Shown: piece after piece, positions 21,675 to 35,138 of the stretch | Numbering within the stretch: position 1 is the first letter of the stretch | Layout of the letters: each line of letters starts with the position of its first letter | Source: an uncultured Acidobacteriota bacterium | GTDB taxonomy: Bacteria; Acidobacteriota; Terriglobia; Acidiferrales; UBA7541 | Assembly (NCBI GenBank): GCA_963792515.1 | Contig: CAWBWG010000007.1 | Span: forward strand, 48,171-112,170 | Length of the DNA stretch: 64,000 nucleotides | Reading direction: 5' to 3' | Translations under genes and position numbers: made by a program | Notes under the pieces: model-generated | Database searches by the model: none | What the model was told of the DNA's origin: nothing | Seen by the model: the letters and a program-made list of their open reading frames with translations, nothing else

Positions 21675-23045
21675 GTGAAAGCCAGATCATATTTCGGGCT
21701 ATTGTCGCTCCTTGCGCTGCTAGCTTGGTCTCAAGCGCCGGCGCATTCCGTTTACATTTCCTGGAGCGAGGCGCAGCCGGCCCTCGCCGCTTATCAGGAT
21801 GCTTTGCCGGAGCGATTGCGAAGCGCCGCGCCGCTCGACGAATCGAAATGGGCGGCATGGGTTGCGGCCAGCGATCGCGAAGTGCGCGCGCGCCTCGATC
21901 GTGGGCAGGAAGATACTCTTAGCAATTTGCTGCGCTTTGGCGTCACCTTCACGCAGGAATACCGCATTGATGATGAATACTTGCCTAAATTTGGGCGCAG
22001 CACGCTGGTGGATTCCTTCGCCGGGCAACGCGCCGGCGATTTGGTCCGCGCGCTCGCTTCGCCGCACTCGGCGGAAGGATTCCGGGAAATGCGCGCATTT
22101 CTCGAGAAGCAGGGCTATTCGTTTGACACTCCGGCAGCGCGCCTAAAAGTAAAAAAGCATCTGCTCGAAAATCTGGCGCGGCTGCGCGACGATTTCGTGA
22201 ACGCTCATTCCGAGGCCGCCAAGGAAAATCGCTGGCAATCCTTCGAAGCGCGCGGGATTTCACTCGATACGAATCTGTGGCCCGACTATGACGTTGACGC
22301 CCATCTGCGCGCCCTGCTGCAAAACGGCTCGCTCAAGCCGGGCAGCGTGCGCCGGATTGCGATCGTCGGCCCGGGGCTTGATTTCGTAAACAAGCAGCAG
22401 GGCTATGATTTTTATCCGCCGCAGACCATCCAGCCCTTTGCGGTGCTCGATAGCCTGGTCCGTCTGAAACTTTCGGATCCTGCGTCGATCGAGATCTATA
22501 CGATGGATATCAGCTCGAGTGTGAACGTGCATATCGAGCGGGCGCTCAAAAATGCGGTCGACGGTAAATCGTACGTGCTGCAATTGCCGTGGTATCAGGC
22601 GGGCCGGTGGAGCGATGAATTCCGTGCAGCGTTCGTTTCCTATTGGCAAAATCTTGGATTGTCGATCGGCAAGCCCGTGCCGGCAATTCCGGTGCCGCAG
22701 GGCGCCGAGGGGATTGAATCTCGCGCCATAGCCGTTCCGCCCGCCATCGTTCGCCGCATTACGCCGTTGGATTTGAACATCGTCTATCAACGGATCGAGC
22801 TGGCTCCCGATCAACGCTTCGATTTGATCATCGGCACGAATGTGTTCGTCTACTATGGCGCGTTTGAGCAGTCGCTGGTGCGCGCGAATGTGGCGAGCAT
22901 GCTTAGACCCGGTGGATTTTTGCTTTCATCGGAGAAACTGGCGGATCGCATCGAGAATGGATTGGCGCCGGAGACGACCACCGAAATTCCTATGACTGGG
23001 CCGCCCGTGATGACGGACTACATTTTCGGCTATCGGCGAAAGTAA
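21675..23045 (+). CDS. secreted protein with a class I SAM-methyltransferase-like C-terminal half
   Basis: GTG start with signal-like MKARSYFGLLSLLALLAWSQAPAHS. Methyltransferase-like blocks RRIAIVGPGLDF, FDLIIGTNVFVYY and MLRPGGFLL. Confidence 0.55.
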   Translation: MKARSYFGLLSLLALLAWSQAPAHSVYISWSEAQPALAAYQDALPERLRSAAPLDESKWAAWVAASDREVRARLDRGQEDTLSNLLRFGVTFTQEYRIDDEYLPKFGRSTLVDSFAGQRAGDLVRALASPHSAEGFREMRAFLEKQGYSFDTPAARLKVKKHLLENLARLRDDFVNAHSEAAKENRWQSFEARGISLDTNLWPDYDVDAHLRALLQNGSLKPGSVRRIAIVGPGLDFVNKQQGYDFYPPQTIQPFAVLDSLVRLKLSDPASIEIYTMDISSSVNVHIERALKNAVDGKSYVLQLPWYQAGRWSDEFRAAFVSYWQNLGLSIGKPVPAIPVPQGAEGIESRAIAVPPAIVRRITPLDLNIVYQRIELAPDQRFDLIIGTNVFVYYGAFEQSLVRANVASMLRPGGFLLSSEKLADRIENGLAPETTTEIPMTGPPVMTDYIFGYRRK

Positions 23046-23069: not shown

Positions 23070-25067
23070 CTAAGCTAGATCGGATTCCCGGCGGCAGAAG
23101 CAACGAGGGCGCCGGACACCCGCAGCTATGCTGGACGGACAGTAAACTTCCGCCCCTACCGCGGGCGAGGCAACGGCTGCGTCCATGGTTGCGGCAAAGG
23201 TTGCGGCGTGGCGTGCTTTCCTGGTTACCGACGGAGTGCTCAGTGAATGTGCTTGTCCGTGGCAGGTCAGCGCGCAGGAATTCGTGGCCCGGCTATAGGA
23301 AACTGGACCGCCGTTTGGCGCGACTACGTTGACATCAAAGTTGACCAGCCGCTCGCCGGAAACAGTGGCGCTAGTCGCGCCCATTCCATGCGGAGTATGG
23401 CAAACCGAGCAGGAGAACCCATCGTTAATATGACGGGCGTGCTCGCTGAAGCTGGCGTTCGACACCACGTTGGCAAGACTGTGGCACTTGCCGCACAACG
23501 CGTACGGGCCGCTCACCGTGAGATCGGGATTCGGATTCAGATTGGTGATGAGTTGGCCTGGAGCCGTCGTCTCGCTGGCTATGTATTGCCGCTCCAGAAT
23601 GTGCGTCCACTTCGTTCCATGCGGGCCATTCGGTCCCGTGCCGCCGAATTCGCGATTGTCATCGCTGTTGTGGCAATCGGAGCAGAAAATTTGGACGCCC
23701 ATGCTGCGTCCCTGGGTCACGCCATCGAGATTCAGCATGTTGGCGAGCAAGCTGGGCTGCGGCAAAGCGCTATTGCTGACGTGCGTTACGGGATGACTCG
23801 AAGTGCTGCTGATGGCGAATTGCGGAATGACGTTGAGAATATCGCCCGAGGACACCAGCCGATTGGGCAAGTACCCGTAGATCGGATTGACAACTTTTCC
23901 CGCGCTCGTGCCATGGCAACGCAAGCAGTTGTCGTACTCGTTTACGGCGGGATACACGGTGCTCACGCCGTCTGCCGCGCTGACTCCGGCGATGCCATTC
24001 TGCGAGGGCCGAATGAGCGGCGGAGGCGTGAAACTCGTGACTTGATTGGCGGGATGGCCGTTGTGGCAATCGACGCAGGTGGCGTGACGATTGTTGTTGA
24101 GCACCACGCTTTCGGCGGCATCGTGCGTGTTCACGCCGGCGGGAAATGGGTGGCCGACCTTGGCGAATTCCGCGAACACATTGGGAATTCCGGGAGAAAT
24201 ATTCGATCCGCCGCTGTGACACGCGAGGCAGTCTTGCTCGTTCGGTGCGCGCAGCAATCGCGCGGGGCCCTGGCCGTTGTGAGGTTCATGGCAGGAGAGG
24301 CATGCGTTCTGCCCTACGTTCGAGTAGCTCCCCACTCCGGACTGCAGCGTGGTCTTATTCGCGGCGGTGGCGTGAATTCCCGTCGGCCAGCCAGCGAGAT
24401 GGTTGATCTGCCCGGTTAAAGCGCGCGTCGGATCATGACAGGCGAGGCACATCTGGCCACTCGAGCTATCGCGCACCAGAAAATTCTGAGAAATGGTGTC
24501 CTTGGCTTGCACGTGCGGGTCGTGGCAGGAAGTGCATTCGATATTTCCCTGCACCAGATGCACCGCTCCAGTGGGGTCCGCCGTTTTTCCCTGAGAAACC
24601 AGCGTCGCCGCTATTTCGACGGTATCTTTTAGCGGCAGCACCAGGCTGAACGGATGCGAGTTCTGCAGGTTCGTGCCGAACACATCGACGGCAGACATCG
24701 AACCCGTCATGGTCACGGCGCCGTACACGATGGTTTGTCCGGGTGCGACGGTTCCATCATGGCAGCTCAGGCAAAGGCTGCTATCTCCTCCGAGCGGAGG
24801 GATGGTGTTTCCGGTCTGATGATAGGTTGTGCTGGTGTAGGTCGTGTAGGTCTGCGTCGAGAAGGTTTGGTTCCAAAGCGGCGCCGGCGCGAATCCGGAA
24901 TGTGGTGCATGGCAATACGTGCAGGAACCGGGCCGCGCGCCGGTTACCGGCGACTTGCTGCCAGTGGTCAAATCGTGGACGCCGATTACATCGCCAGTCA
25001 CCTGCGCGCGCATCGCGGCTGGAGCCATCATCACCAGGGCGCACATCAGCAGGAACCGCGGCCTCAC
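23070..25067 (-). CDS. multiheme c-type cytochrome (11 CXXCH + 1 CX3CH), secreted
   Basis: Signal-like MRPRFLLMCALVMMAPAAMRAQ. Motifs counted by eye: CTYCH, CLSCH, CTSCH, CLACH, CLSCH, CLACH, CVDCH, CLRCH, CSDCH, CGKCH, CSVCH, CALTCH. The GTG start overlaps the upstream stop (GTGA at 25064-25067). Confidence 0.9.
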   Translation of the reverse strand: MRPRFLLMCALVMMAPAAMRAQVTGDVIGVHDLTTGSKSPVTGARPGSCTYCHAPHSGFAPAPLWNQTFSTQTYTTYTSTTYHQTGNTIPPLGGDSSLCLSCHDGTVAPGQTIVYGAVTMTGSMSAVDVFGTNLQNSHPFSLVLPLKDTVEIAATLVSQGKTADPTGAVHLVQGNIECTSCHDPHVQAKDTISQNFLVRDSSSGQMCLACHDPTRALTGQINHLAGWPTGIHATAANKTTLQSGVGSYSNVGQNACLSCHEPHNGQGPARLLRAPNEQDCLACHSGGSNISPGIPNVFAEFAKVGHPFPAGVNTHDAAESVVLNNNRHATCVDCHNGHPANQVTSFTPPPLIRPSQNGIAGVSAADGVSTVYPAVNEYDNCLRCHGTSAGKVVNPIYGYLPNRLVSSGDILNVIPQFAISSTSSHPVTHVSNSALPQPSLLANMLNLDGVTQGRSMGVQIFCSDCHNSDDNREFGGTGPNGPHGTKWTHILERQYIASETTAPGQLITNLNPNPDLTVSGPYALCGKCHSLANVVSNASFSEHARHINDGFSCSVCHTPHGMGATSATVSGERLVNFDVNVVAPNGGPVSYSRATNSCALTCHGQAHSLSTPSVTRKARHAATFAATMDAAVASPAVGAEVYCPSSIAAGVRRPRCFCRRESDLA

Positions 25068-26134
25068 TGATTTCCTCCCGCCGATTGTTTCGGCAAACCG
25101 TAATAGTGAAATACTTGCACGCGGCGGTTCAGGGAATCGACCACGAAAACGCGATCGTTGTGATCGATAAATAATCCGGACGGCAATTGGAATTGCGCGA
25201 CGGCTGTGCCGCGTTGCCCGAAGTAGTAAAGAAGCTGGCCTTTGCGGTTGAAAACCTGCACGGCGCCCCGAAGCCCGTCCACCACGTAGAGATCGCCCTC
25301 GGAATCAATGGCGATTCCCTTGGGACGGAACATCGCGGCGTTATCGTCTCCGATGTGGCCAATGGAGTATTGAAATGCTCCCGTGCGATCGAGCACCTGC
25401 ACGCGGAAATTCATCGCATCGACCACAAATAAGTCGCCGCCATCCAGCCGAAGCTCGGTGGGGAAGTTGAACTCCAGTTCGCCGGATCCTTCTTTGCCAA
25501 TGGTCTGCAGCACATTGCCGGCTAGATCCATTACGAAGATTTTGTCGCGCAATGTGTCGGTGACATAAATGCGGTTGGCTGCCGAGTCCACGGCGATTCC
25601 GGTGGGGCGCTTGAAGAAGCCTTCGCCGTATTTCAAGCTTCCGATCACCCGGCTGAATTTGCCGCTGGGCTCAAATACAAAAACTTTCCCGCCTTCCGAA
25701 TCGGTGACGTAGATGTTGTCCTGAGCATCGACGGCCACGCATTGCGGCGCGAGCAGATGGTCTTTGCCTTTATCGCGGCGGGAAATGAATTTGTATTTCT
25801 GCTGGGCGAAATCGAAGATGTGGATCCCGTAGGCGCCCGGGTCGGTCACAATCACGCGCCCGTGCGAATCCGCGACGATGCCGTAGGGGCGAATCAACGA
25901 ATGAAATTCCGGCTCGCCCGCCACCACATCCAGCACTTTGTTCCAGAAGCCGCGCTTGGGCTTGACGTCGCGCTCCCAAGTGAAATTTCGTTCGTAGCTC
26001 AGCTTGCGCCCGCCCTCGAGCAGCAAATCGGGAACCGGTTGGTCTTCCGGCTTTTTCTTGTCCTTCCGCGAGCCCCAGGCAGGAATCAGCAGCAAAAGGG
26101 CAAACACGGTCGCGGTCACCGCGCGTAGTTTCAA
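25064..26134 (-). CDS. NHL-repeat six-bladed beta-propeller protein
   Basis: Repeated blocks PYGIVADSHGRVIVTD, PQCVAVDAQDNIYVTD, PTGIAVDSAANRIYVTD, FPTELRLDGGDLFVVD, PKGIAIDSEGDLYVVD, PSGLFIDHNDRVFVVD. A TTG start at 26134 (MKLRAVTATVFALLLLIPAWG) is preferred, because the track ORF extension to 26764 overlaps the barrel gene. The start is uncertain. Confidence 0.8.
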   Translation of the reverse strand: MKLRAVTATVFALLLLIPAWGSRKDKKKPEDQPVPDLLLEGGRKLSYERNFTWERDVKPKRGFWNKVLDVVAGEPEFHSLIRPYGIVADSHGRVIVTDPGAYGIHIFDFAQQKYKFISRRDKGKDHLLAPQCVAVDAQDNIYVTDSEGGKVFVFEPSGKFSRVIGSLKYGEGFFKRPTGIAVDSAANRIYVTDTLRDKIFVMDLAGNVLQTIGKEGSGELEFNFPTELRLDGGDLFVVDAMNFRVQVLDRTGAFQYSIGHIGDDNAAMFRPKGIAIDSEGDLYVVDGLRGAVQVFNRKGQLLYYFGQRGTAVAQFQLPSGLFIDHNDRVFVVDSLNRRVQVFHYYGLPKQSAGGNQ

Positions 26135-26148
26135 TCGCGATGCGCGGA

Positions 26149-27990
26149 TCAGAAAAATTTGAACCACCGTGAAACTCCGAAGTAATAAGTAGAAACGTTG
26201 GCAGCGGGAAGCGGCGAGGCGCTGAAGCTTTGCTCCAGCCGGGCATAGCCACCCGTCAGGTACACTTTGCGGAACTGATATTGGGTGTAAACGGTGAGCT
26301 GCAAGTTCTTGTTCGAGGATGCCTGCGTGTCTCCGCCTGTATCGCTGGTGGACTTCGAGAAGCTCGCGCCGATCGTAAGTCTTCGCACCGGCGAAGCCCC
26401 CAGCCCGAAAGAATAACTCCTGCCGCCGTACAGAATGATGAGGCTCGAAGGTATAACCGGCGTAGGCACCGGCGTGACGACCAGCCCGGCTCCGGTCTGC
26501 ACTGCATTGCCATTGGCGGCGGCGTAGCTTCCCGTTAGGCTGGCCCAGCGTCCGAAGGTGAATCCGGTGGAATAGCTCTGACTGCGGCTTTCGGTTCCTG
26601 CTTGCTGCGTCAATGCAGTGCGTGATCCGGACGCGCTGGCGCTCCAATACACCGAACCGAAACGGCGTCTTACATTGCCAGAATAGTTGTAGTAACCGGT
26701 CGTGTAGGTCACCAGCAACGTCTGCGCGTTCTGCGCGTAGCTGAACGACGCGCCAAAAAACCATTTATGGATGCGCCGCGAGAAGTTAACCGTGCCGATC
26801 AGCCCGATGGTATTGACGTCCATGTTGTCGAGCCGCGTGTCATTCACGGTTCCGGACACGTTGAACGAACCACCCAGCAACGGCCGCGTGTAGAGAATAC
26901 TGCCGCCCGCGGAAGTTGCGCCCACGCTTTCGCCGAGGAAGGATTGATCGCGGCGCTCGACATCGCCGAGCAATTGCAGGTTCGGCAAAATCGCGTAACT
27001 GGCCACGCCCAACGCATCGAAGGAATCGGATTTCTCGTTACCGTTAGGAGGCAGTGGAACGCCCCCGCTCGAGGAAGCCGCTTCGAACAGCGTTCCGCCC
27101 AGATTATCCGAGTAATTCAGCCCCACTGACAGATGCAGCTTGTTGCTGGGCTGGATTCCGGCGTTTGCGGTGATGGAATCAACGGTGCCATTGAAGCTGA
27201 AGCCCTGATCGTCGGTGCTAAAAGACGAGCGCGTGAAAGTGGCGGAAAACCCACCGCGCATTGGCAGAGCGTGCGAAATATTGAATCCGAATCCATCCGT
27301 GCCCGTATCCGAGTTTACCGATTGATCGGTAGCAGTGAACAATTGCGGGATCACCGAATTGGACGTTCCATACTGAAAGAACGCGCCCATGGCGTATCCG
27401 TGCGTCAAATATCCCGAATGAATATTGATGGAATCAAAAGTCGTGCTTCCCGTGTCATTCGCGCCGTAAACTGAATAATCCGTGCTTCCTCTTTGAAATC
27501 CAAAAGTGAGGCTGGGCATATCCGGAACGTTTTCCGACCAATTGACGCCGAATGAATCGCTGTTTCCGTGCGTCGTGTAACTGGGCAGCCCCGGCAGCGC
27601 GAAATTCCCTTCGCTGTTATACGACCTCGAATAATTGACGGAACCCGGATAATTGCTGCCATTGAAAATTCCCGCGGCGAAATTCACACCACTGGCGTCG
27701 GAGATGGATTGATAATTGGAATCGGCGCGCGACTGATTCAGGTACGGCGTCACAGTGAACGATAGAAAATTGGGATCGTAAAAGTATCCTGCGAGAGTCG
27801 CCGTCCCGCCGAAATTCAAGCTGTGCTCCGAGGCCGTCTGATTCCCGTAGTCCGCGGAATATCCTCCCGAAACTACCCCGGTCAGGTTCATATTGACGTC
27901 GCCGGCTTGCACCTGCGCGGCCGCCGGGCGAGCCCAGAAAAGCAGCAGCCCCGCGGCTAGGCAATACGCGACTCGAGAAATCCGAAGCAA
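26149..27990 (-). CDS. outer-membrane beta-barrel-like protein (porin-like partner of the cytochromes)
   Basis: 613 aa. Signal peptide MLRISRVAYCLAAGLLLFWARPAAAQ. The sequence is Gly/Ser/Thr/Tyr/Asn-rich with alternating patterns, and ends ..YYFGVSRWFKFF (aromatic terminal residue). Confidence 0.7.
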   Translation of the reverse strand: MLRISRVAYCLAAGLLLFWARPAAAQVQAGDVNMNLTGVVSGGYSADYGNQTASEHSLNFGGTATLAGYFYDPNFLSFTVTPYLNQSRADSNYQSISDASGVNFAAGIFNGSNYPGSVNYSRSYNSEGNFALPGLPSYTTHGNSDSFGVNWSENVPDMPSLTFGFQRGSTDYSVYGANDTGSTTFDSINIHSGYLTHGYAMGAFFQYGTSNSVIPQLFTATDQSVNSDTGTDGFGFNISHALPMRGGFSATFTRSSFSTDDQGFSFNGTVDSITANAGIQPSNKLHLSVGLNYSDNLGGTLFEAASSSGGVPLPPNGNEKSDSFDALGVASYAILPNLQLLGDVERRDQSFLGESVGATSAGGSILYTRPLLGGSFNVSGTVNDTRLDNMDVNTIGLIGTVNFSRRIHKWFFGASFSYAQNAQTLLVTYTTGYYNYSGNVRRRFGSVYWSASASGSRTALTQQAGTESRSQSYSTGFTFGRWASLTGSYAAANGNAVQTGAGLVVTPVPTPVIPSSLIILYGGRSYSFGLGASPVRRLTIGASFSKSTSDTGGDTQASSNKNLQLTVYTQYQFRKVYLTGGYARLEQSFSASPLPAANVSTYYFGVSRWFKFF

Positions 27991-28005: not shown

Positions 28006-29001
28006 TTACAGCACTTCGACCTTGGCCTTGCGCCGCAGGGCCTGATCCAGCGCGGCACGGAGCTGGTTGGTCTTCTTGCTTTCCAGCTCCTTGCGCAACT
28101 CGTTTTTTACGTCGGCAAATTTCGCCTTGCCCGCCGTTACGTGCTGGTTCAGCCGCACGATGGTGAAGGCTTGCTCGATTTGAATGATGCTGGTGATCTG
28201 CCCTGGCTGCATGGAGAGTAAGGCATGCACTACGGCGGGATCGAGCTTGGCACGCTCGACGAGCTTGTGGTCGCCCATCATTACCCGGTAGTCATCGTCC
28301 GATATTTTTTCGGCGAGCATTCCGAATTCTTCGTAGCTTTTGGTGGCCTTGGCCTGCCGCAACGCCTCTTCGGCGCGCCGGCGCCCTTCTTTCAATTGGT
28401 CGGCAGTCTGGTTCTTGGGCGGCAGAACCGAGATGGTCTGAAACGCGAAGGATTCCGGGTGCTCGAATCGCGCGGGGTTTTTGTCGTAGTAGGATCGCAG
28501 TTCCGCGTCCGACACGGTCGATTTCTGTTGCACCTCAATTTTCAGCAAGTCATCGATCAACAGGGAGCGGCGCACCCGCTGACGCACCAGTTCTTCCGAG
28601 TCGTGGAATTCCGTGTGGACGAATTCTTGATACAGAGCTGGACTGGCGAACTGGGCCCGGAAGTCCGCTTCGGCCTTTTGCAATTTCGAGGCGGGCACTG
28701 TCATTCCGCGGCGCAAAGCTTCCTGATATACCAGCTCCTCGAAAATAATCATTTTCATGGCGCCGTCGCGGATGCTTTCTTCCATTTCTTTGGGGAACCC
28801 GCCATTGTGCTGGCGCGCGTAGGGAAAGATCGCGAACATCTCGCGCAACAGGTCGCCATCGGTGAGAACGGTGCCGTTTACCCGAGCCACGGGCCGGCCC
28901 GTCGCGTGTATCTGCACGCTCTGCGACGGTGCTGAGTCTTGAGCAGACGCTGTCCCGAGCGCCGCTAGCACGAGCACGCCGACACCCAATTGAAAGTTCA
29001 T
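28006..29001 (-). CDS. periplasmic peptidyl-prolyl cis-trans isomerase (PpiC/parvulin, SurA/PrsA-like)
   Basis: Signal MNFQLGVGVLVLAALGTASAQ. SurA-N-like ARVNGTVLTDGDLLREM, and a rotamase-like block FEHPESFAFQTISVL..EFGMLAEKISDD..GDHKLVERAKLDPAV. Confidence 0.75.
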   Translation of the reverse strand: MNFQLGVGVLVLAALGTASAQDSAPSQSVQIHATGRPVARVNGTVLTDGDLLREMFAIFPYARQHNGGFPKEMEESIRDGAMKMIIFEELVYQEALRRGMTVPASKLQKAEADFRAQFASPALYQEFVHTEFHDSEELVRQRVRRSLLIDDLLKIEVQQKSTVSDAELRSYYDKNPARFEHPESFAFQTISVLPPKNQTADQLKEGRRRAEEALRQAKATKSYEEFGMLAEKISDDDYRVMMGDHKLVERAKLDPAVVHALLSMQPGQITSIIQIEQAFTIVRLNQHVTAGKAKFADVKNELRKELESKKTNQLRAALDQALRRKAKVEVL

Positions 29002-29067
29002 AGCGTTTTCAGGCTACTGACTGAGAAAACAAGAGGAGAGATTTCGCTCTCCCCTCGTAGGTTGAAG

Positions 29068-29946
29068 TTAGAAAGTGGTCCCCGCCGTACCGTTGTTCGA
29101 CTCGTTCGCTTCGCCGCCATGGCACTGACGGCAAAATTGCGCGTTCTGGTTCGAACCAGCGGTGGTTGAGGCCGGGTTATAAGGCGCCAGGATGAAAAAC
29201 ATCGTCTGGTAATAACCCGACGGCAGTCCAGTCTTCGGTCCGTTGGTGACCTTCACCACGTTCATCAGGTGCTGGTTGTGGCAGGTCGTGCAGACGACGA
29301 CTGGCGAAGTGTTGTTGTAGTTCCCAGGTGCGACAAAAAAGCCATAGTTCGTGATGAACTTGGCGAAATTGGTGCCCGAGGGAACGTTAATCGCTCCGGC
29401 GGTAATGGTGCAATCCCAGTTGTACTGTCCGCCGCAACCAATGATGGCGTTCAGTCCGACTGGATGGTCGTTGAGGTACCCCAGACTATCGGCGCCCAGT
29501 AACGTAGGAATTTCGTTAAAGGTACCGTAAGTGGATGGGAGCGTCTCATAGACCTGGTTCTTCATCATCGCGCCCGTGGCATAGTTGCCGTCATGGCAAC
29601 TGAGACAGGTCAACAGCCCCAAGACATCGGGGGTGGTGGCCGTTAGGCTGGCCGGCAGAGTCTCGACGTAAAACGTGCCGGCTCGTGACTGGCCAGTGTT
29701 GATGACCTTGTTGTACAGATTGCCGACATCCTGGCCCCAGAGCGCAACCGCTCCGGCATTTGGGTCGCCGGATTTGTTGGCTCCGTTGCCCGATGCGCCG
29801 CTATGCGGAGCATGGCAAGCCGTGCAACCACGGCCATAGTTAAGGTGGGCGCCGAGGACGTCCGTCGACGGCGAAAAGCCGGACTGGGCTGCAGCAATTC
29901 CTGCACTGCCCAGCACGACGATTAGGGTTAACAATACTTTCTTCAT
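29068..29946 (-). CDS. tetraheme c-type cytochrome (292 aa), secreted
   Basis: ATG at 29946 preceded by GGGAGG. Signal MKKVLLTLIVVLGSAGIAAAQ. Motifs CTACH, CLSCH, CTTCH, CRQCH. The N-terminal module GCTACHAPHSG..ALWGQ resembles SCTYCHAPHSG..PLWNQ of the 665-aa cytochrome. Confidence 0.85.
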   Translation of the reverse strand: MKKVLLTLIVVLGSAGIAAAQSGFSPSTDVLGAHLNYGRGCTACHAPHSGASGNGANKSGDPNAGAVALWGQDVGNLYNKVINTGQSRAGTFYVETLPASLTATTPDVLGLLTCLSCHDGNYATGAMMKNQVYETLPSTYGTFNEIPTLLGADSLGYLNDHPVGLNAIIGCGGQYNWDCTITAGAINVPSGTNFAKFITNYGFFVAPGNYNNTSPVVVCTTCHNQHLMNVVKVTNGPKTGLPSGYYQTMFFILAPYNPASTTAGSNQNAQFCRQCHGGEANESNNGTAGTTF

Positions 29947-30083: not shown

Positions 30084-31358
30084 TTACTGCGCGGTGGAAC
30101 TCTGTGCCTTGGCGGACGGGTCAGCCTTCGGCGACGCCGAATCGGCCGGCTTTGGCGCGGCCTGTTGCGGCGACGCTTCGCGGCGCGCTTTCTCCGCCGC
30201 GGCTTCCGCATCCGTCACGTACTGAAACATCTGCATCCGGCCCGGATATTGTTCGCTGGTGAAGACGTGGTTCTGTTTGTCGATGGCGATGCCCACCAGC
30301 GCTCCGAATTGTCCGGGAAAATTTCCGTGCCCGCCGATCCAGGTGAGCAACTGCCCCTCACGGTTGAAGACCTGCACGCGATCCTGATACGCGTCCGCGA
30401 TCCAGATGTGCCCGTCGGAATCGATGGCGATTCCTTTCGGCCGCGCCAGGTATCCCGGTCCATCGCCGTGCTGTCCGAACATGCCGATGAACTTCCCGTC
30501 GGCATCGAACATTTCCACGCGGTTGTTCATCGTGTCGGTCACATACACATTGCGGTCTTTGTCCAACGCCACATTCGATGGCGCGCCAAAATCTCCCGGC
30601 GTGGTGAGCCAATGGTTTTTGCCCGCGGTGCCGATTTTGCGCACCAGCTTCAAAGTGTCTGCGTCGAACACGATCACCTGGTCTTGCTGCGTATCCACTA
30701 CGTACAGATAGCGGTTCTCCGTGTCGATCGCCAGGCCCACGGGATCCACGAGTCCTTCGTCGATCTTGTTGATCACTTGATGCTTTCCATCAAACACCAG
30801 CACGCGGTGCAGCTTGCCATCCGAGACGAACAGGCGATCGTCATCGTCAATTGCCAGTCCGTTGACCAACCCGAAATGCGCTTCATAGCCGTTGCGGATC
30901 AGTTGCACGTCGCGCGTATCGGTATTAAATATGAAAACGGCTCCCACTTTCTGATCGGCGACGTACACCAGACCCTTGGAATCGATGGCAATCCCGTAGG
31001 GCGAGATCATTTGGAACGGAAACGTCTTCACATCGAATTTCTCGGTCTGTGGCTGCTCGCCTGCTAAACGGTCCATCCAACTCTGCTTTTTCTTCTTAGG
31101 TGCGGGACTCGTGTCGATCTTTTCGCCCGCGAAGTAATTCAGGTAACGCACGCGCGCGATCGATGGAGGGCTGGGCCACACCAGCATCGATAAATCGATC
31201 TGCACTTTCGGCTTGGCCGCCTGGTCGGCCGCCGTATCGGCCTTCTTCTTCTTTTGGTTATCGGCAAAATTGGCGAACGGTAAAGCCAGTACTACCGCCA
31301 GCAGCCCCGCGATGGCTGCTCCGTTTCGGCACGCCGCTCGTATCGCAATCCTTTTCAT
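30084..31358 (-). CDS. NHL-repeat beta-propeller protein with a Lys/Pro/Ala-rich C-terminal tail
   Basis: Anchor or signal AIAGLLAVVLALPFANFA. Blades PYGIAIDSKGLVYVAD, VNGLAIDDDDRLFVSD, PVGLAIDTENRYLYVVD, PSNVALDKDRNVYVTD, PKGIAIDSDGHIWIAD, LVGIAIDKQNHVF. Confidence 0.85.
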   Translation of the reverse strand: MKRIAIRAACRNGAAIAGLLAVVLALPFANFADNQKKKKADTAADQAAKPKVQIDLSMLVWPSPPSIARVRYLNYFAGEKIDTSPAPKKKKQSWMDRLAGEQPQTEKFDVKTFPFQMISPYGIAIDSKGLVYVADQKVGAVFIFNTDTRDVQLIRNGYEAHFGLVNGLAIDDDDRLFVSDGKLHRVLVFDGKHQVINKIDEGLVDPVGLAIDTENRYLYVVDTQQDQVIVFDADTLKLVRKIGTAGKNHWLTTPGDFGAPSNVALDKDRNVYVTDTMNNRVEMFDADGKFIGMFGQHGDGPGYLARPKGIAIDSDGHIWIADAYQDRVQVFNREGQLLTWIGGHGNFPGQFGALVGIAIDKQNHVFTSEQYPGRMQMFQYVTDAEAAAEKARREASPQQAAPKPADSASPKADPSAKAQSSTAQ

Positions 31359-31372
31359 TGCTTCACTCCAAA

Positions 31373-32812
31373 TTATCGGCTCATGTCGATCCGGTTTCTG
31401 TGACAGCCGTCACAGAAGGCCATATTGTTTTCCTGGTCTTTCACCAGTAGTCCGGCGTGCGCCGAGGAGTGCGGCTGGTGGCAGCTCATGCAACTCAGCG
31501 AGAAACGCACTTTGGTGATGTCTTTCGGATCGGGCACATCCGAAACCGGATGCCCGTCGACGGGATGGCCAAATCCGAATCGCAGCGGCAGGATCGGTAC
31601 GCGGTTCTTCTTGTAATAGTCATCCGGAAGCTTCACGGCCCCGTTGAAAATGGTCAGCACGTGCTCCGCTTCCAGCTTCTGGGGCACCGAATCGGGGCCA
31701 TGGCACTCGAGGCAGAGCGCATCGCCTTGCGCGCGCAGTAGATGTTCGCTGTCGTTGCCGTGAGGGTCGTGACAGGTCGCGCAGCCCTGCTGGTATGCCG
31801 GCTGATGCAACACGCGCTTTTTGCCCTCGTCGGCTTGCGTGATATGGCAGCCCAGACACACGTTCACGGCATCCGGCTTCGGAAAGCCGGGCGACGCTCC
31901 GGCATGCGGGTTGTGGCAGTCCGTGCAATCCCCCTGCGCCCCGGGATGCTGCACTTTTGCCGTTTCGATCTGCTTGGCTTTGTCCGCGTGGCACGTGACG
32001 CACAGTTCCTTGGCCGACGCCTGCGTCAACACCACTTTCCCGTCTTTAGCCGGCTGGTGGCAAAGCTCGCATTGCTTTTCCGCGAACGGCGGGTGAACGA
32101 ATGCCTGCATCAGCTTGGGCCGCTCGGACTCATGTGGGCTATGGCAGGCCAGGCAATCAGCGCTCTCGAACGGCTGATTCTGATGGGCCTTAGCCAGATT
32201 GGCGTCTTTCACGTCATGGCAATCGACGCACAGCGCTGGAACCGTTTTGGTGAGATGAAATTTAAATTCGAGGTTGAGAGGGTCGCCCGTTTTGTGCGTG
32301 ACGTGGCAGGTATCGCAGCCCAGATCGAGTGCGGCATGGCGGCTGCCGGCCGCGGAAGGGTGGGCGCCCGTGGCGTGGCAATCGAGGCAGAGGTTTTCTT
32401 TGGCGCCGCCCGACATGGGCTTCAGCAGTTGAAACTTGTTGTCGGAGGAATGCGGATCATGGCATTTCAGGCAGTCGCGGACTGCTGGCGGATGCACCGC
32501 CCCTTTAATTTGCGTTGCATCCTTATCAACATGGCAGGTCAGACAGAGCCCGTAAACGGTGGTGGTGATCAATTTCACGCGCGTTACGTCGCGATTGACG
32601 CGCACCTCGTGGCACGAAGTGCATCCTAGCGCCATGGCGGAATGTACGGATTTGCCCTTGGTCTGATCAACATGGCATTCCAGGCATTTTGCTGACGGCG
32701 TGTTCTTCTCGAGCGGAACGGGATGAACATCGGCGCGTGCCGTCGCGGCGCCGCAGAGCGCGAGGAAGGCATACAACAACGCTCTCAGTCCGCCGGATGC
32801 ACACTGGCGCAC
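31373..32812 (-). CDS. 16-heme c-type cytochrome (c7/c3-type repeats), periplasmic or secreted
   Basis: I counted 16 CXXCH motifs, from CLECH through to CDGCH. A GTG at 32812 gives MRQCASGGLRALLYAFLALCGAATARA (signal-like). The track ORF extension to 33034 has no signal and looks non-coding. Confidence 0.85.
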   Translation of the reverse strand: MRQCASGGLRALLYAFLALCGAATARADVHPVPLEKNTPSAKCLECHVDQTKGKSVHSAMALGCTSCHEVRVNRDVTRVKLITTTVYGLCLTCHVDKDATQIKGAVHPPAVRDCLKCHDPHSSDNKFQLLKPMSGGAKENLCLDCHATGAHPSAAGSRHAALDLGCDTCHVTHKTGDPLNLEFKFHLTKTVPALCVDCHDVKDANLAKAHQNQPFESADCLACHSPHESERPKLMQAFVHPPFAEKQCELCHQPAKDGKVVLTQASAKELCVTCHADKAKQIETAKVQHPGAQGDCTDCHNPHAGASPGFPKPDAVNVCLGCHITQADEGKKRVLHQPAYQQGCATCHDPHGNDSEHLLRAQGDALCLECHGPDSVPQKLEAEHVLTIFNGAVKLPDDYYKKNRVPILPLRFGFGHPVDGHPVSDVPDPKDITKVRFSLSCMSCHQPHSSAHAGLLVKDQENNMAFCDGCHRNRIDMSR

Positions 32813-33266: not shown

Positions 33267-33405
33267 AAATCCCACGAAATTCTGTATCAGGCCTGTTAAC
33301 GCAACGCCTTGCTGGCGCGTCTAGCTGCTAGTACGCGAGCATCCCATGCCGGCAAGCCTAGGAAGCCGAGTTGACATTCGCGCGGGAATCGTGGGATTAC
33401 CGGGT

Positions 33406-33984
33406 ATGAGCGATTCGCACGCGCGCGCAGCCGAGCCGCCATCGGACGACGCGATGCTGGTGGAAGCGGCGCGCCGCGGCGATCGCAGCGCCTATGGCCG
33501 TCTCTACGATCGCTATGCGCACATGGTTCACGGGATTCTGCTCGCGCGCGTGCCGCCCAACGAAGTCGACGACCTGACTCAGGATGTGTTTCTGAAAGCC
33601 ATGCCGCGTCTCGGCTCGTTGCGCGAGGCGGCGCGCTTCGGTGCCTGGCTGGCGGCGATCGCTCGCAATCGCGCCAATGATTTCTTCCGGCGGGCGAAGC
33701 CGACTGCGGATTTGAGCGAATCGCTGGTAGTCGAAAAAATCGAAGACCGCGCCGCTAGCAGCGCCCAAATTGCGGAGGCGTCAGCGATTCTGGAAGCCAT
33801 CCGCACGCTGCCCGACGCGTATCGCGAGACGCTAATTTTGCGGCTGGTCGAAGGCATGACCGGCCCCGAAATTGCCGCGCGCACCGGCCTGGCGCCCGGC
33901 TCGGTGCGCGTGAATCTGCATCGCGGGATGCAGCAATTGCGCGAGAAACTCGGTGTCCGTTCGTCACATGCCGCGGCTCTCTAG
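33406..33984 (+). CDS. ECF-type RNA polymerase sigma-70 family factor
   Basis: From the ATG at 33406: ..LVEAARRGDRSAYGRLYDRYAHMVHGILLARVPPNEVDDLTQDVFLKAM (region 2) and ..YRETLILRLVEGMTGPEIAARTGLAPGSVRVNLHRGMQQLR (region 4). Confidence 0.85.
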   Translation: MSDSHARAAEPPSDDAMLVEAARRGDRSAYGRLYDRYAHMVHGILLARVPPNEVDDLTQDVFLKAMPRLGSLREAARFGAWLAAIARNRANDFFRRAKPTADLSESLVVEKIEDRAASSAQIAEASAILEAIRTLPDAYRETLILRLVEGMTGPEIAARTGLAPGSVRVNLHRGMQQLREKLGVRSSHAAAL

Positions 33985-34064
33985 ATGCTTTGCCCGGCAA
34001 TCCCGGACGAAATGAAAAAGCCGTGCGATGCCTGAGTAGGGAATTGGTGCCAGAAGGACAACTT

Positions 34065-35138
34065 ATGAATGATGATTATCTCTGGGATGGCTCAGGTGAG
34101 TCGGATCCCGAAATCCAAAAACTCGAGAGCACGCTGGGACGCTTCCGTCACAATCTTTCAGCGCCGGATTTTCACAATCTGAACGCAGCGACGCAGTCTT
34201 CTCCGCTGCGCCGGCGATTCCGTTTCAGTTTCGCAGTTGCGTCCGCATGTCTCGCAACGGCCGCAGCACTCACGGTAGCGGCTGTGCAGTACGAGAATTA
34301 TTTGCACCGGATCTCGTTGAGCGAGCCCGCCTGGCGCGTCGCAACGCAAGCCGGAATGCCACGGATTGGTTCAAACGGAATCGGCATCGATGGAAAAGCG
34401 GCATCCTTGCGCATTGGAGAAACTCTCGAGACCGATAGCAACTCGCGCGCGTCAATCGTAGACGGTGCGACAGGAGACATCCAGGTCGATCCAGACACGC
34501 GCGTACGCGCCGTCGAATCGCGCTCTGGCACCAAGCGGCTCGCTCTCGACCGCGGCACGATTCACGCGCAAATCTGGGCCCCCGCAGGCCGCTTCGTCGT
34601 CGACACGCCCTCAGCCGTCGCCGTTGATCTCGGCTGCGTCTACACTCTCCACGTAGACGATTCCGGCGCGGGCCTGCTGCAAACTTCCTTCGGCTGGGTC
34701 GGCTTCAAACTCGACGGGCACGAGTCGTTCATTCCGACGGGCGCGGCCTGCGCCACGCATCCGAACTCAGGCCCCGGCACACCGTATTTCGAAGATTCAT
34801 CGCAGAAATTCCGAGAAGCGCTAACTCAATTCGATTCCAGCAGCCCCGCACCAGCCGAACGAGAAGCCGCGCTAAGTGTTGTCCTCGCGGCAGCCCGCAA
34901 ACGCGACGCATTCACCCTATGGCATTTGCTCTCGCGCGTGGACGAATCCGATCGAACTCGCGTCTACGACCGGCTAGCATCTCTCGTTCCTCCTCCGCGC
35001 GAAGTCACCGGCGATGGCATCCTGCGCCTCGATCGCCCCATGCTCGATCGCTGGTGGGACCAGTTGGGTCTCGGCGACATAAAACTCTGGCGCAATTGGG
35101 AGCGCAATTGGCCGGAGGCGTCTCGCGCAGCCAAATAA
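34065..35138 (+). CDS. anti-sigma factor, FecR-like, single-pass membrane protein
   Basis: ATG at 34065 (MNDDYLWDGSGESDPEIQKLE). TM segment FSFAVASACLATAAALTVAAV. FecR-like block LRIGETLETDSNSRASIVDGATGDIQVDPDTRV..GTIHAQIWAPAGRFVVDTPSAVAVDLGCVY. Confidence 0.7.
   Translation: MNDDYLWDGSGESDPEIQKLESTLGRFRHNLSAPDFHNLNAATQSSPLRRRFRFSFAVASACLATAAALTVAAVQYENYLHRISLSEPAWRVATQAGMPRIGSNGIGIDGKAASLRIGETLETDSNSRASIVDGATGDIQVDPDTRVRAVESRSGTKRLALDRGTIHAQIWAPAGRFVVDTPSAVAVDLGCVYTLHVDDSGAGLLQTSFGWVGFKLDGHESFIPTGAACATHPNSGPGTPYFEDSSQKFREALTQFDSSSPAPAEREAALSVVLAAARKRDAFTLWHLLSRVDESDRTRVYDRLASLVPPPREVTGDGILRLDRPMLDRWWDQLGLGDIKLWRNWERNWPEASRAAK

Follow-up and report, generated by a model that had tools for sequence, protein, structure and literature searches.

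A predicted 28-strand outer-membrane barrel is a fixed part of a multihaem cytochrome gene module in Terriglobia

Introduction

In a 2026 preprint (Fiorito et al., bioRxiv 10.64898/2026.05.27.727921), peat Terriglobales are reported to carry an EET1 "Porin-NHL-CytC" gene cluster with an "MtrB-like porin" that has a Sec signal peptide and whose best structural match is 6R2Q (template modelling [TM] score, 0.48; root mean square deviation [rmsd], 12.7 Å). The partners of this porin are an NHL scaffold and a 13-haem OmcE-like cytochrome, multimer models resemble Mtr conduits, and EET1 transcripts occur in situ throughout peat profiles. Here we describe the gene for a predicted outer-membrane beta-barrel of 613 amino acids (aa), P0001, which lies in a cytochrome operon on a 64,000-nucleotide (nt) stretch of DNA from an uncultured Terriglobia bacterium of the phylum Acidobacteriota (GenBank assembly GCA_963792515.1, contig CAWBWG010000007.1, positions 48,171 to 112,170; the whole stretch is called the window). 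In acidic soils and peat, Terriglobia rank among the most abundant bacteria, and a conserved outer-membrane electron outlet in this class bears on anoxic carbon respiration and methane suppression, a point already made in the Fiorito preprint.

Similar sets of genes have been described elsewhere. The uetABCDEFGHIJ cluster of "Candidatus Tenderia electrophaga" encodes a tetrahaem cytochrome (UetA), a peptidyl-prolyl isomerase (PPIase; UetB), a barrel predicted to have 28 strands (UetC, ALP54624.1), two NHL proteins and an undecahaem cytochrome with 11 CXXCH motifs (Eddie et al., bioRxiv 10.1101/2022.05.06.490989). The minimal omcE nanowire cluster of Desulfuromonadia comprises two multihaem cytochromes, two beta-propellers, an OmcE-type tetrahaem cytochrome and a large barrel; OmcE homologues were found in five phyla, Acidobacteriota not among them (mBio 2026, PMC13712944). 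In the osc (omcS-companion) cluster of G. sulfurreducens, the channel-like proteins OscE, OscF and OscG were proposed to act in secretion and are accompanied by the PPIase OscH and the beta-propeller OscD (Shen et al. 2025, via PMC13194489). In every cluster of the OmcE, Uet or OmcS type, less is understood about the barrel than about any other part, and whether it insulates a cytochrome or exports and anchors filament subunits is debated in the nanowire field.

The window operon runs on the minus strand through seven genes, which encode a 16-CXXCH cytochrome, an NHL protein (424 aa), a 4-CXXCH cytochrome, a PPIase, the barrel, a second NHL protein (356 aa) and a cytochrome with 11 CXXCH motifs and 1 CX3CH motif. 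With EET1 it shares the Terriglobia lineage, the order porin-NHL-OmcE-like cytochrome, the Sec signal and near-equal Foldseek statistics; we take P0001 to be a member of the EET1 porin family on the strength of these nearly equal Foldseek numbers. The accessible part of the preprint, unlike our description of the window, presents a three-gene core without a strand number and makes no mention of the tetrahaem-PPIase pair, the MtrA-like 16-haem gene, the hairpin discussed below or the equivalence with uet and omcE. Compared by description, the operon agrees with uet in the tetrahaem-PPIase-barrel order, the 28 strands, the two NHL proteins and the 11-CXXCH cytochrome; it differs in having an MtrA-like 16-haem protein in place of the trihaem c7 proteins UetD, UetE and UetG and the cupredoxin UetF, and the uet host is an electron-uptake gammaproteobacterium, unlike that of the window. 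Its composition, again by description, is also that of the omcE cluster, except that a PPIase is not listed there and that the propellers there are lipoproteins, whereas both window NHL proteins lack a lipobox Cys behind the hydrophobic segment. By description, osc follows the same cluster logic of nanowire cytochrome, PPIase, beta-propeller and channel-like proteins, with the six-haem OmcS as its cytochrome family. The barrel family and the kind of system have thus already been described in the 2026 preprint, and no new kind of system is reported here. What is new is descriptive: the strand number, the membrane belt, the five-to-seven-gene module, the hairpin, the AMIN-fused and 575-aa relatives and a negative test of MtrB/PioB membership.

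The barrel gene and its product

The P0001 gene occupies 26149..27990 on the minus strand (27990→26149), a strand left unnamed in the first-pass annotation, and starts with TTG; AlphaFold2 and Foldseek identify its translated product as a plug-less outer-membrane beta-barrel of 28 predicted strands. Residues 1-25 (27916..27990, minus strand) form a predicted signal peptide, MLRISRVAYCLAAGLLLFWARPAAA, which is followed by QVQ and has, by rules, the layout of a Sec substrate of signal peptidase I: a basic n-region, a hydrophobic core and an AAA-Q cleavage site. In both AlphaFold2 models residues 2 to 18 or 20 are a lone helix, followed by a low-confidence linker. The cleavable signal proposed in the first-pass annotation of the sequence is therefore retained, as is its statement that haem and Cys-rich motifs are absent: P0001 has no CXXCH and a single Cys, which lies inside the signal peptide, and no aligned member of its family has a CXXCH. 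The barrel-like composition remarked on at that stage was borne out by the mature protein, in which G, S, T, N, Y and A make up 55.5% of residues and K, R, D and E 11.1%.

The aromatic C terminus, likewise pointed out before, proved to be a family trait. The putative beta-signal (..YYFGVSRWFKFF; 26152..26181, minus strand) is the last strand and ends in Phe. P0001 ends in ..VSRWFKFF; in the family alignment (A2) there is no variation at G605, R608, F610 or F613, and conservation at W609 and F612 is 90% or higher. Phe is the last residue in 89 of 95 full-length representatives, mostly within SRWFxxF, and this motif is retained down to 25% identity. The gene is closely set between its neighbours, as had been reported. 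A 15-nt spacer, agagagcagggggac, containing a Shine-Dalgarno-like AGGGGGA, separates the PPIase stop codon TAA (28006-28008) from the barrel TTG at 27990, and the barrel stop codon TGA (26149-26151) is followed after 14 nt by the TTG start of the second NHL gene at 26134.

Predicted fold and membrane topology

AlphaFold2 was run twice, first with 34 homologues and then with 59, including members at 25-30% identity, and gave mean predicted local distance difference test (pLDDT) scores of 71.7 and 75.9, respectively. In the first run four of the five models, and in the second every model, came within about 5 pLDDT points of the top-scoring one; the remaining model of the first run scored 52.1. 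The two runs agree on the signal helix and on 28 long antiparallel strands, and neither shows a plug or any additional or periplasmic domain. With the N terminus in the periplasm, the even-to-odd turns of the model are 2-7 residues long and the odd-to-even loops reach 12, 20 and 26, a modelled pattern that is the usual one for outer-membrane proteins.

Averaged over whole strands, amphipathicity is weak. For the belt analysis, positions in each strand were counted from the periplasmic side in 208 family members. One strand face is then hydrophobic over its first 8-10 residues only, with 47-81% LIVFMWY and hardly any charged or amide residues; this belt is enriched in aromatics along its two edges, and beyond it the same face turns polar. 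The opposite face is polar along the entire strand. Picking the belt face by its hydrophobicity inflates the contrast between faces, for which the drop after position 10 on the same face serves as an internal control. The face assigned to lipid is slightly more conserved than the lumen face, from which we draw no conclusion. In the model, the barrel has a normal membrane belt beside its periplasmic turns and projects several residues outward from it.

P0001 has the general properties of a barrel inserted by the beta-barrel assembly machinery (BAM), namely, a signal peptide, an even strand number, periplasmic termini, an aromatic beta-signal, a belt and short turns. The gene is accordingly predicted to encode a Sec-exported outer-membrane beta-barrel, and insertion is probably by BAM. 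A non-barrel fold, which the first-pass annotation had named as the outcome that would speak against it, did not emerge: the prediction is a 28-strand transmembrane barrel with a belt, short periplasmic turns and a beta-signal.

Foldseek searches of the PDB placed Shewanella MtrB (6r2q_B) first for both models, with expectation values (E) of 2e-11 and 7e-12, TM scores of 0.49 and 0.47, 12% identity in the structural alignment and an rmsd of 13.1-13.5 Å. This match was about 1000-fold better in E than the next ones, which were 30-strand SlpA barrels (~1e-8) and 22-strand TonB-dependent transporters (1e-8 to 1e-6). As modelled, P0001 resembles MtrB (6R2Q chain B, PF11854) in being a plug-less giant barrel with short loops and an MtrA-like partner gene; it differs in that low identity, in having 28 strands against 26 and in giving no hidden Markov model (HMM) match.

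Family membership and distribution

A word-indexed search found 617 proteins at E≤0.001 among 8000 candidates scored, and 648 representatives at 50% identity came out of an exhaustive profile search, with E≤1e-30 for 296. Family length is about 600-650 aa throughout. Because more than 600 homologues at 25-90% identity keep this length and the gene neighbours, the open reading frame (ORF) is not a chance one.

No Pfam or NCBIfam family matched P0001 at E≤0.1 or any of 34 family members, and comparison of the family profile with PDB sequences gave chance matches only. PF11854 (MtrB/PioB) in particular had no match at E≤10 among the 34 members and none in the window's genome, the assembly of which is 78.5% complete. 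Comparison of alignment A2 by hhalign with a true PF11854 barrel of the same phylum returned a probability of 5.6%. Membership of the MtrB/PioB family was ruled out by this value and by the absence of HMM matches, TIGR03509 included. Since the sequence test failed, likeness to MtrB/PioB holds for fold and role only, and the comparison made in the first pass stands in part: the best PDB match is MtrB and the proposed role is similar, whereas membership by sequence or HMM has to be given up.

In an even sample of 400 Acidobacteriota genomes, matches came from the window's genome and from 6 of 33 genomes of one other family of the same class; the remaining families in this sample gave no profile match at E≤1e-5. 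A scan of the genome collection yielded only Acidobacteriota-type loci, and there was no cross-phylum link among 20 distant representatives, of which the one labelled is from a Terriglobales bacterium. Three metagenome-assembled genomes (MAGs) labelled Verrucomicrobiia, Candidatus Aquilonibacter and Candidatus Cybelea (L014, L021 and L079) have the same synteny with about 50% barrel identity, which points to mislabelled bins or lateral transfer of the module.

A more diverse profile used with a lax threshold gave three further informative matches in Acidobacteriota. The first is a 921-aa barrel from a genome of the same class (L110:8655-11420, minus strand), residues 308-921 of which (614 aa) align end to end with P0001 at 23% identity (E 4e-15). 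Its N-terminal extension of about 300 aa contains an AMIN domain (PF11741), and its sister cluster is without a PPIase gene. The second, a 575-aa barrel from another Acidobacteriota family, gave a weak signal (hhalign E 0.003 over 479 columns, with shared PxF and RxFxF motifs), and its remote homology is supported by gene context, since its gene is flanked by an OmcE-like tetrahaem gene and an NHL gene; a search outward from it found two proteins only. The third, from another Acidobacteriota genome, is a classical MtrB_PioB barrel of 730 aa (L108:9406-12633; PF11854 E 1.5e-75) beside a decahaem MtrA-like gene. Judged by their sequences, two unrelated barrel families would thus serve cytochrome clusters in Acidobacteriota.

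Conservation of gene order

We compared 80 related loci (L001-L080) from different species-level genomes, all of them MAGs and almost all labelled Acidobacteriota/Terriglobia. Genes for the tetrahaem cytochrome, PPIase, barrel, NHL protein and OmcE-like 11/12-haem cytochrome are adjacent in 80 of 80, as far as the contigs reach. The position between a PPIase gene and the second NHL gene, noticed at first in the window alone, is thus general, both genes adjoining the barrel at every locus. Neither in this set nor among distant members was the barrel gene seen apart from multihaem cytochrome genes, and members at 25-30% identity keep PPIase-barrel-NHL, together with the full order of seven genes on contigs long enough to show it. 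Of the proteins encoded in the set, the barrel varies most (48-56% identity versus 60-75% for its neighbours). Its gene is a constant member of this Terriglobia module.

The MtrA-like gene and its NHL companion are placed more freely: the pair lies upstream in most of the 80 loci, downstream in about ten and more than 10 kb off in about fourteen. In five of five genomes checked in which the MtrA-like gene is more than 10 kb from the barrel, a 68%-identical orthologue was present elsewhere.

Possible roles of the barrel

The first-pass annotation had proposed that the protein is the trans-outer-membrane sheath or export channel of the cytochrome system. Our results support this proposal, the wording of which spans both of the readings that computation cannot separate. 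Since a hole of such size cannot stay open, a partner protein must occupy or close the barrel. We lean, with moderate confidence, towards a sheath that holds a multihaem cytochrome across the outer membrane: MtrB is the best fold match, an MtrA-like partner is encoded in the operon, the lumen is bare in the models, and published multimer models resemble Mtr conduits. In such an arrangement the wide polar lumen would be filled by a multihaem cytochrome and the barrel would insulate it, as MtrB does around MtrA. The MtrA-like 16-haem protein would most likely enter the lumen from the periplasm and meet OmcE-like cytochromes at the outer mouth, where electrons would cross the outer membrane. The NHL propellers may scaffold the complex, the PPIase may chaperone the barrel or the cytochromes through the periplasm, and the tetrahaem protein, apparently made in excess, may extend the path beyond the cell surface.

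Several observations weigh against a sheath. The MtrA-like gene is the least tightly linked part of the module, and it is the OmcE-like genes that stay attached to the barrel. PF11854 finds no match in the family, the hhalign probability against a true member of PF11854 is low, and a TM score of 0.49 to MtrB is modest. The hairpin that follows the tetrahaem gene and the AMIN-fused sister barrel are no less compatible with a machine for assembly or secretion.

This hairpin is the best-scoring terminator-like site on the operon strand (29033..29056, minus strand). It resembles an intrinsic terminator, with a 9-bp stem (GAGGGGAGA-loop-TCTCTCCTC) and a T-rich tail, and lies in the 66-nt gap between the tetrahaem and PPIase genes. 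In 60 of 60 related loci the equivalent site likewise holds a GC-rich hairpin (-15.5 to -28 kcal/mol) in a GGGGAGAG/CTCTCCCC or GGGGAGGG/CCCTCCCC version, with a T run after it in most cases. Its conservation is established from folds of each sequence; RNAalifold called four pairs, since MAFFT had put the stems out of register, and we make no formal claim of covariation. On sequence grounds, the hairpin suggests either attenuation of the transcript before the PPIase-barrel-NHL-cytochrome genes or two separate operons. It fits a subunit made in excess over its machine and fits two separate operons equally.

A serious though less probable alternative is that the barrel is a secretion pore, assembly platform or usher-like anchor for OmcE-like cytochromes. 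Folded holo-cytochromes (the tetrahaem protein or the OmcE-like domain of the 665-aa protein) would pass through it or dock in it and polymerise outside, with the PPIase as a periplasmic chaperone. The invariant order tetrahaem-PPIase-barrel, which is that of uetA-uetB-uetC, and the fixed attachment of OmcE-like genes to the barrel speak for such a role, as does the conserved terminator-like hairpin after the tetrahaem gene, which suggests an excess of subunit as in pilin operons. The sister-cluster homologue with its extension of about 300 aa carries an AMIN domain, as do PilQ secretins, and the literature has proposed a "secretion pore or anchor" for the large barrels of omcE clusters (PMC13712944) and a porin-like route for OmcS (PMC13194489). 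Against this, P0001 itself has no plug, usher-like or periplasmic domain, the cluster contains no energy source, and the best fold match is a sheath rather than an usher (FimD ranked 43rd in Foldseek). The lumen, about 3.5-4 nm by a geometric estimate from 28 strands, is marginally wider than that of MtrB and borderline for a folded holo-cytochrome of about 30 kDa. Routes through type II secretion or pili exist as well, with 3-4 secretin genes per genome in five genomes; as secretins were present in all five, the search for them does not discriminate between the readings.

A bolder version, to which we give somewhat less credence still, is that the barrel is the outer-membrane part of a dedicated, ATP-independent route for export and assembly of folded, haem-loaded cytochromes, a "cytochrome usher" that releases OmcE-like subunits and afterwards holds the base of the filament. 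If true, this would be a new kind of outer-membrane protein-secretion pathway, common to the omcE, uet and EET1 clusters. Sheath and secretion or anchoring need not exclude each other, as OmcE-like subunits could stack on a cytochrome that sits inside the barrel and serves as their base. Three comparative clues bear on the question of sheath versus export: the hairpin after the subunit gene, the AMIN-fused sister barrel and the OmcE-like cytochrome that is split in one locus and fused in others.

Two other explanations are very improbable. A porin for general diffusion or nutrient uptake that has no part in the cytochrome system beyond lying in its operon would share the porin-like composition and the lack of cofactor motifs. 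However, P0001 matches no FadL, OprD, TonB-dependent or other porin family in Pfam or NCBIfam and has no N-terminal domain before strand 1, and an unplugged barrel of 28 strands is far too wide for a selective porin. Linkage to cytochrome, NHL and PPIase genes is strict in all loci, including those of members at 25% identity, and in the phylum sample matches occur only in the window's genome and in one other family. A nutrient porin unrelated to cytochromes, the other contrary outcome considered in the first pass, is therefore not what we found. A spurious ORF or a soluble beta-rich protein with no membrane barrel is hardly credible, since the weak whole-strand amphipathicity that would favour it gives way to a clear belt when strand positions are counted from the periplasmic side, conservation extends to the signal peptide and the beta-signal, and the family is large, constant in length and modelled consistently within the confidence range by AlphaFold2 in all but the one model that scored 52.1.

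Other genes of the operon and its surroundings

The first gene of the operon (31373..32812, minus strand; the ORF is open to 33034, with a likely start near 32812) encodes an MtrA/DmsE-like cytochrome with 16 CXXCH motifs. Against PDB sequences it matches the MtrA chain 6r2q_A at E 1.7e-21, and it resembles TIGR03508 below the family cutoff. The gene at 30084..31358 (minus strand) encodes the 424-aa NHL protein, a predicted six-bladed beta-propeller (Pfam NHL and DUF5128) with an N-terminal hydrophobic anchor or signal. A tetrahaem c-type cytochrome (four CXXCH motifs; 292 aa from an internal ATG) is encoded at 29068..29946, and a SurA-like parvulin PPIase of 331 aa (Pfam Rotamase_2, Rotamase and SurA_N_2/3) at 28006..29001, both on the minus strand. 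The tetrahaem protein has no direct PDB sequence match, and its weak similarity to the OmcE-like domain of the downstream 665-aa cytochrome is limited to the surroundings of the haem motifs; by sequence it is a candidate for a divergent OmcE-like surface or filament subunit.

Beyond the barrel, the gene for the second NHL beta-propeller (25064..26134, minus strand; 356 aa; Pfam NHL and DUF5128) has a stop codon that overlaps the next start (GTGA). The 665-aa cytochrome that follows (23070..25067, minus strand) has 11 CXXCH motifs and 1 CX3CH motif, arranged as an N-terminal OmcE-like tetrahaem domain and a 7-8-haem extension. Its residues 8-212 match the whole OmcE filament subunit 7TFS (7tfs_A) at E 2.8e-12, and MtrC/MtrF domain II/IV was matched in Pfam; the matches listed in a search with the OmcE-like domain are acidobacterial fragments. 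In a remote Acidobacteriota locus (L107:5054-6759) this protein is replaced by the products of two adjacent genes, an OmcE-like tetrahaem protein (214 aa) and a 7-haem protein (360 aa). The 665-aa cytochrome thus looks like a fusion of an OmcE-like tetrahaem module with a 7-8-haem module, and the separate genes in L107 suggest that the two modules work in contact.

A divergent pair of genes for an extracytoplasmic function (ECF) sigma factor and a FecR-like anti-sigma factor (33346-35138) faces the operon. Its candidacy as a conserved regulator was ruled out, as none of the 80 related loci has such a pair within 10 kb. Convergent with the operon and downstream of it, a 456-aa ORF (21675-23045, plus strand) has a signal-like N terminus and no Pfam match and occurs near the module in 14 of the 80 loci. 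At a distant Terriglobales locus (L093:12940-17346), the module is followed by tetratricopeptide repeat (TPR) proteins and a PMT_2 (family 39-like) glycosyltransferase, which echoes the glycosylation genes reported beside Geobacter omcE clusters.

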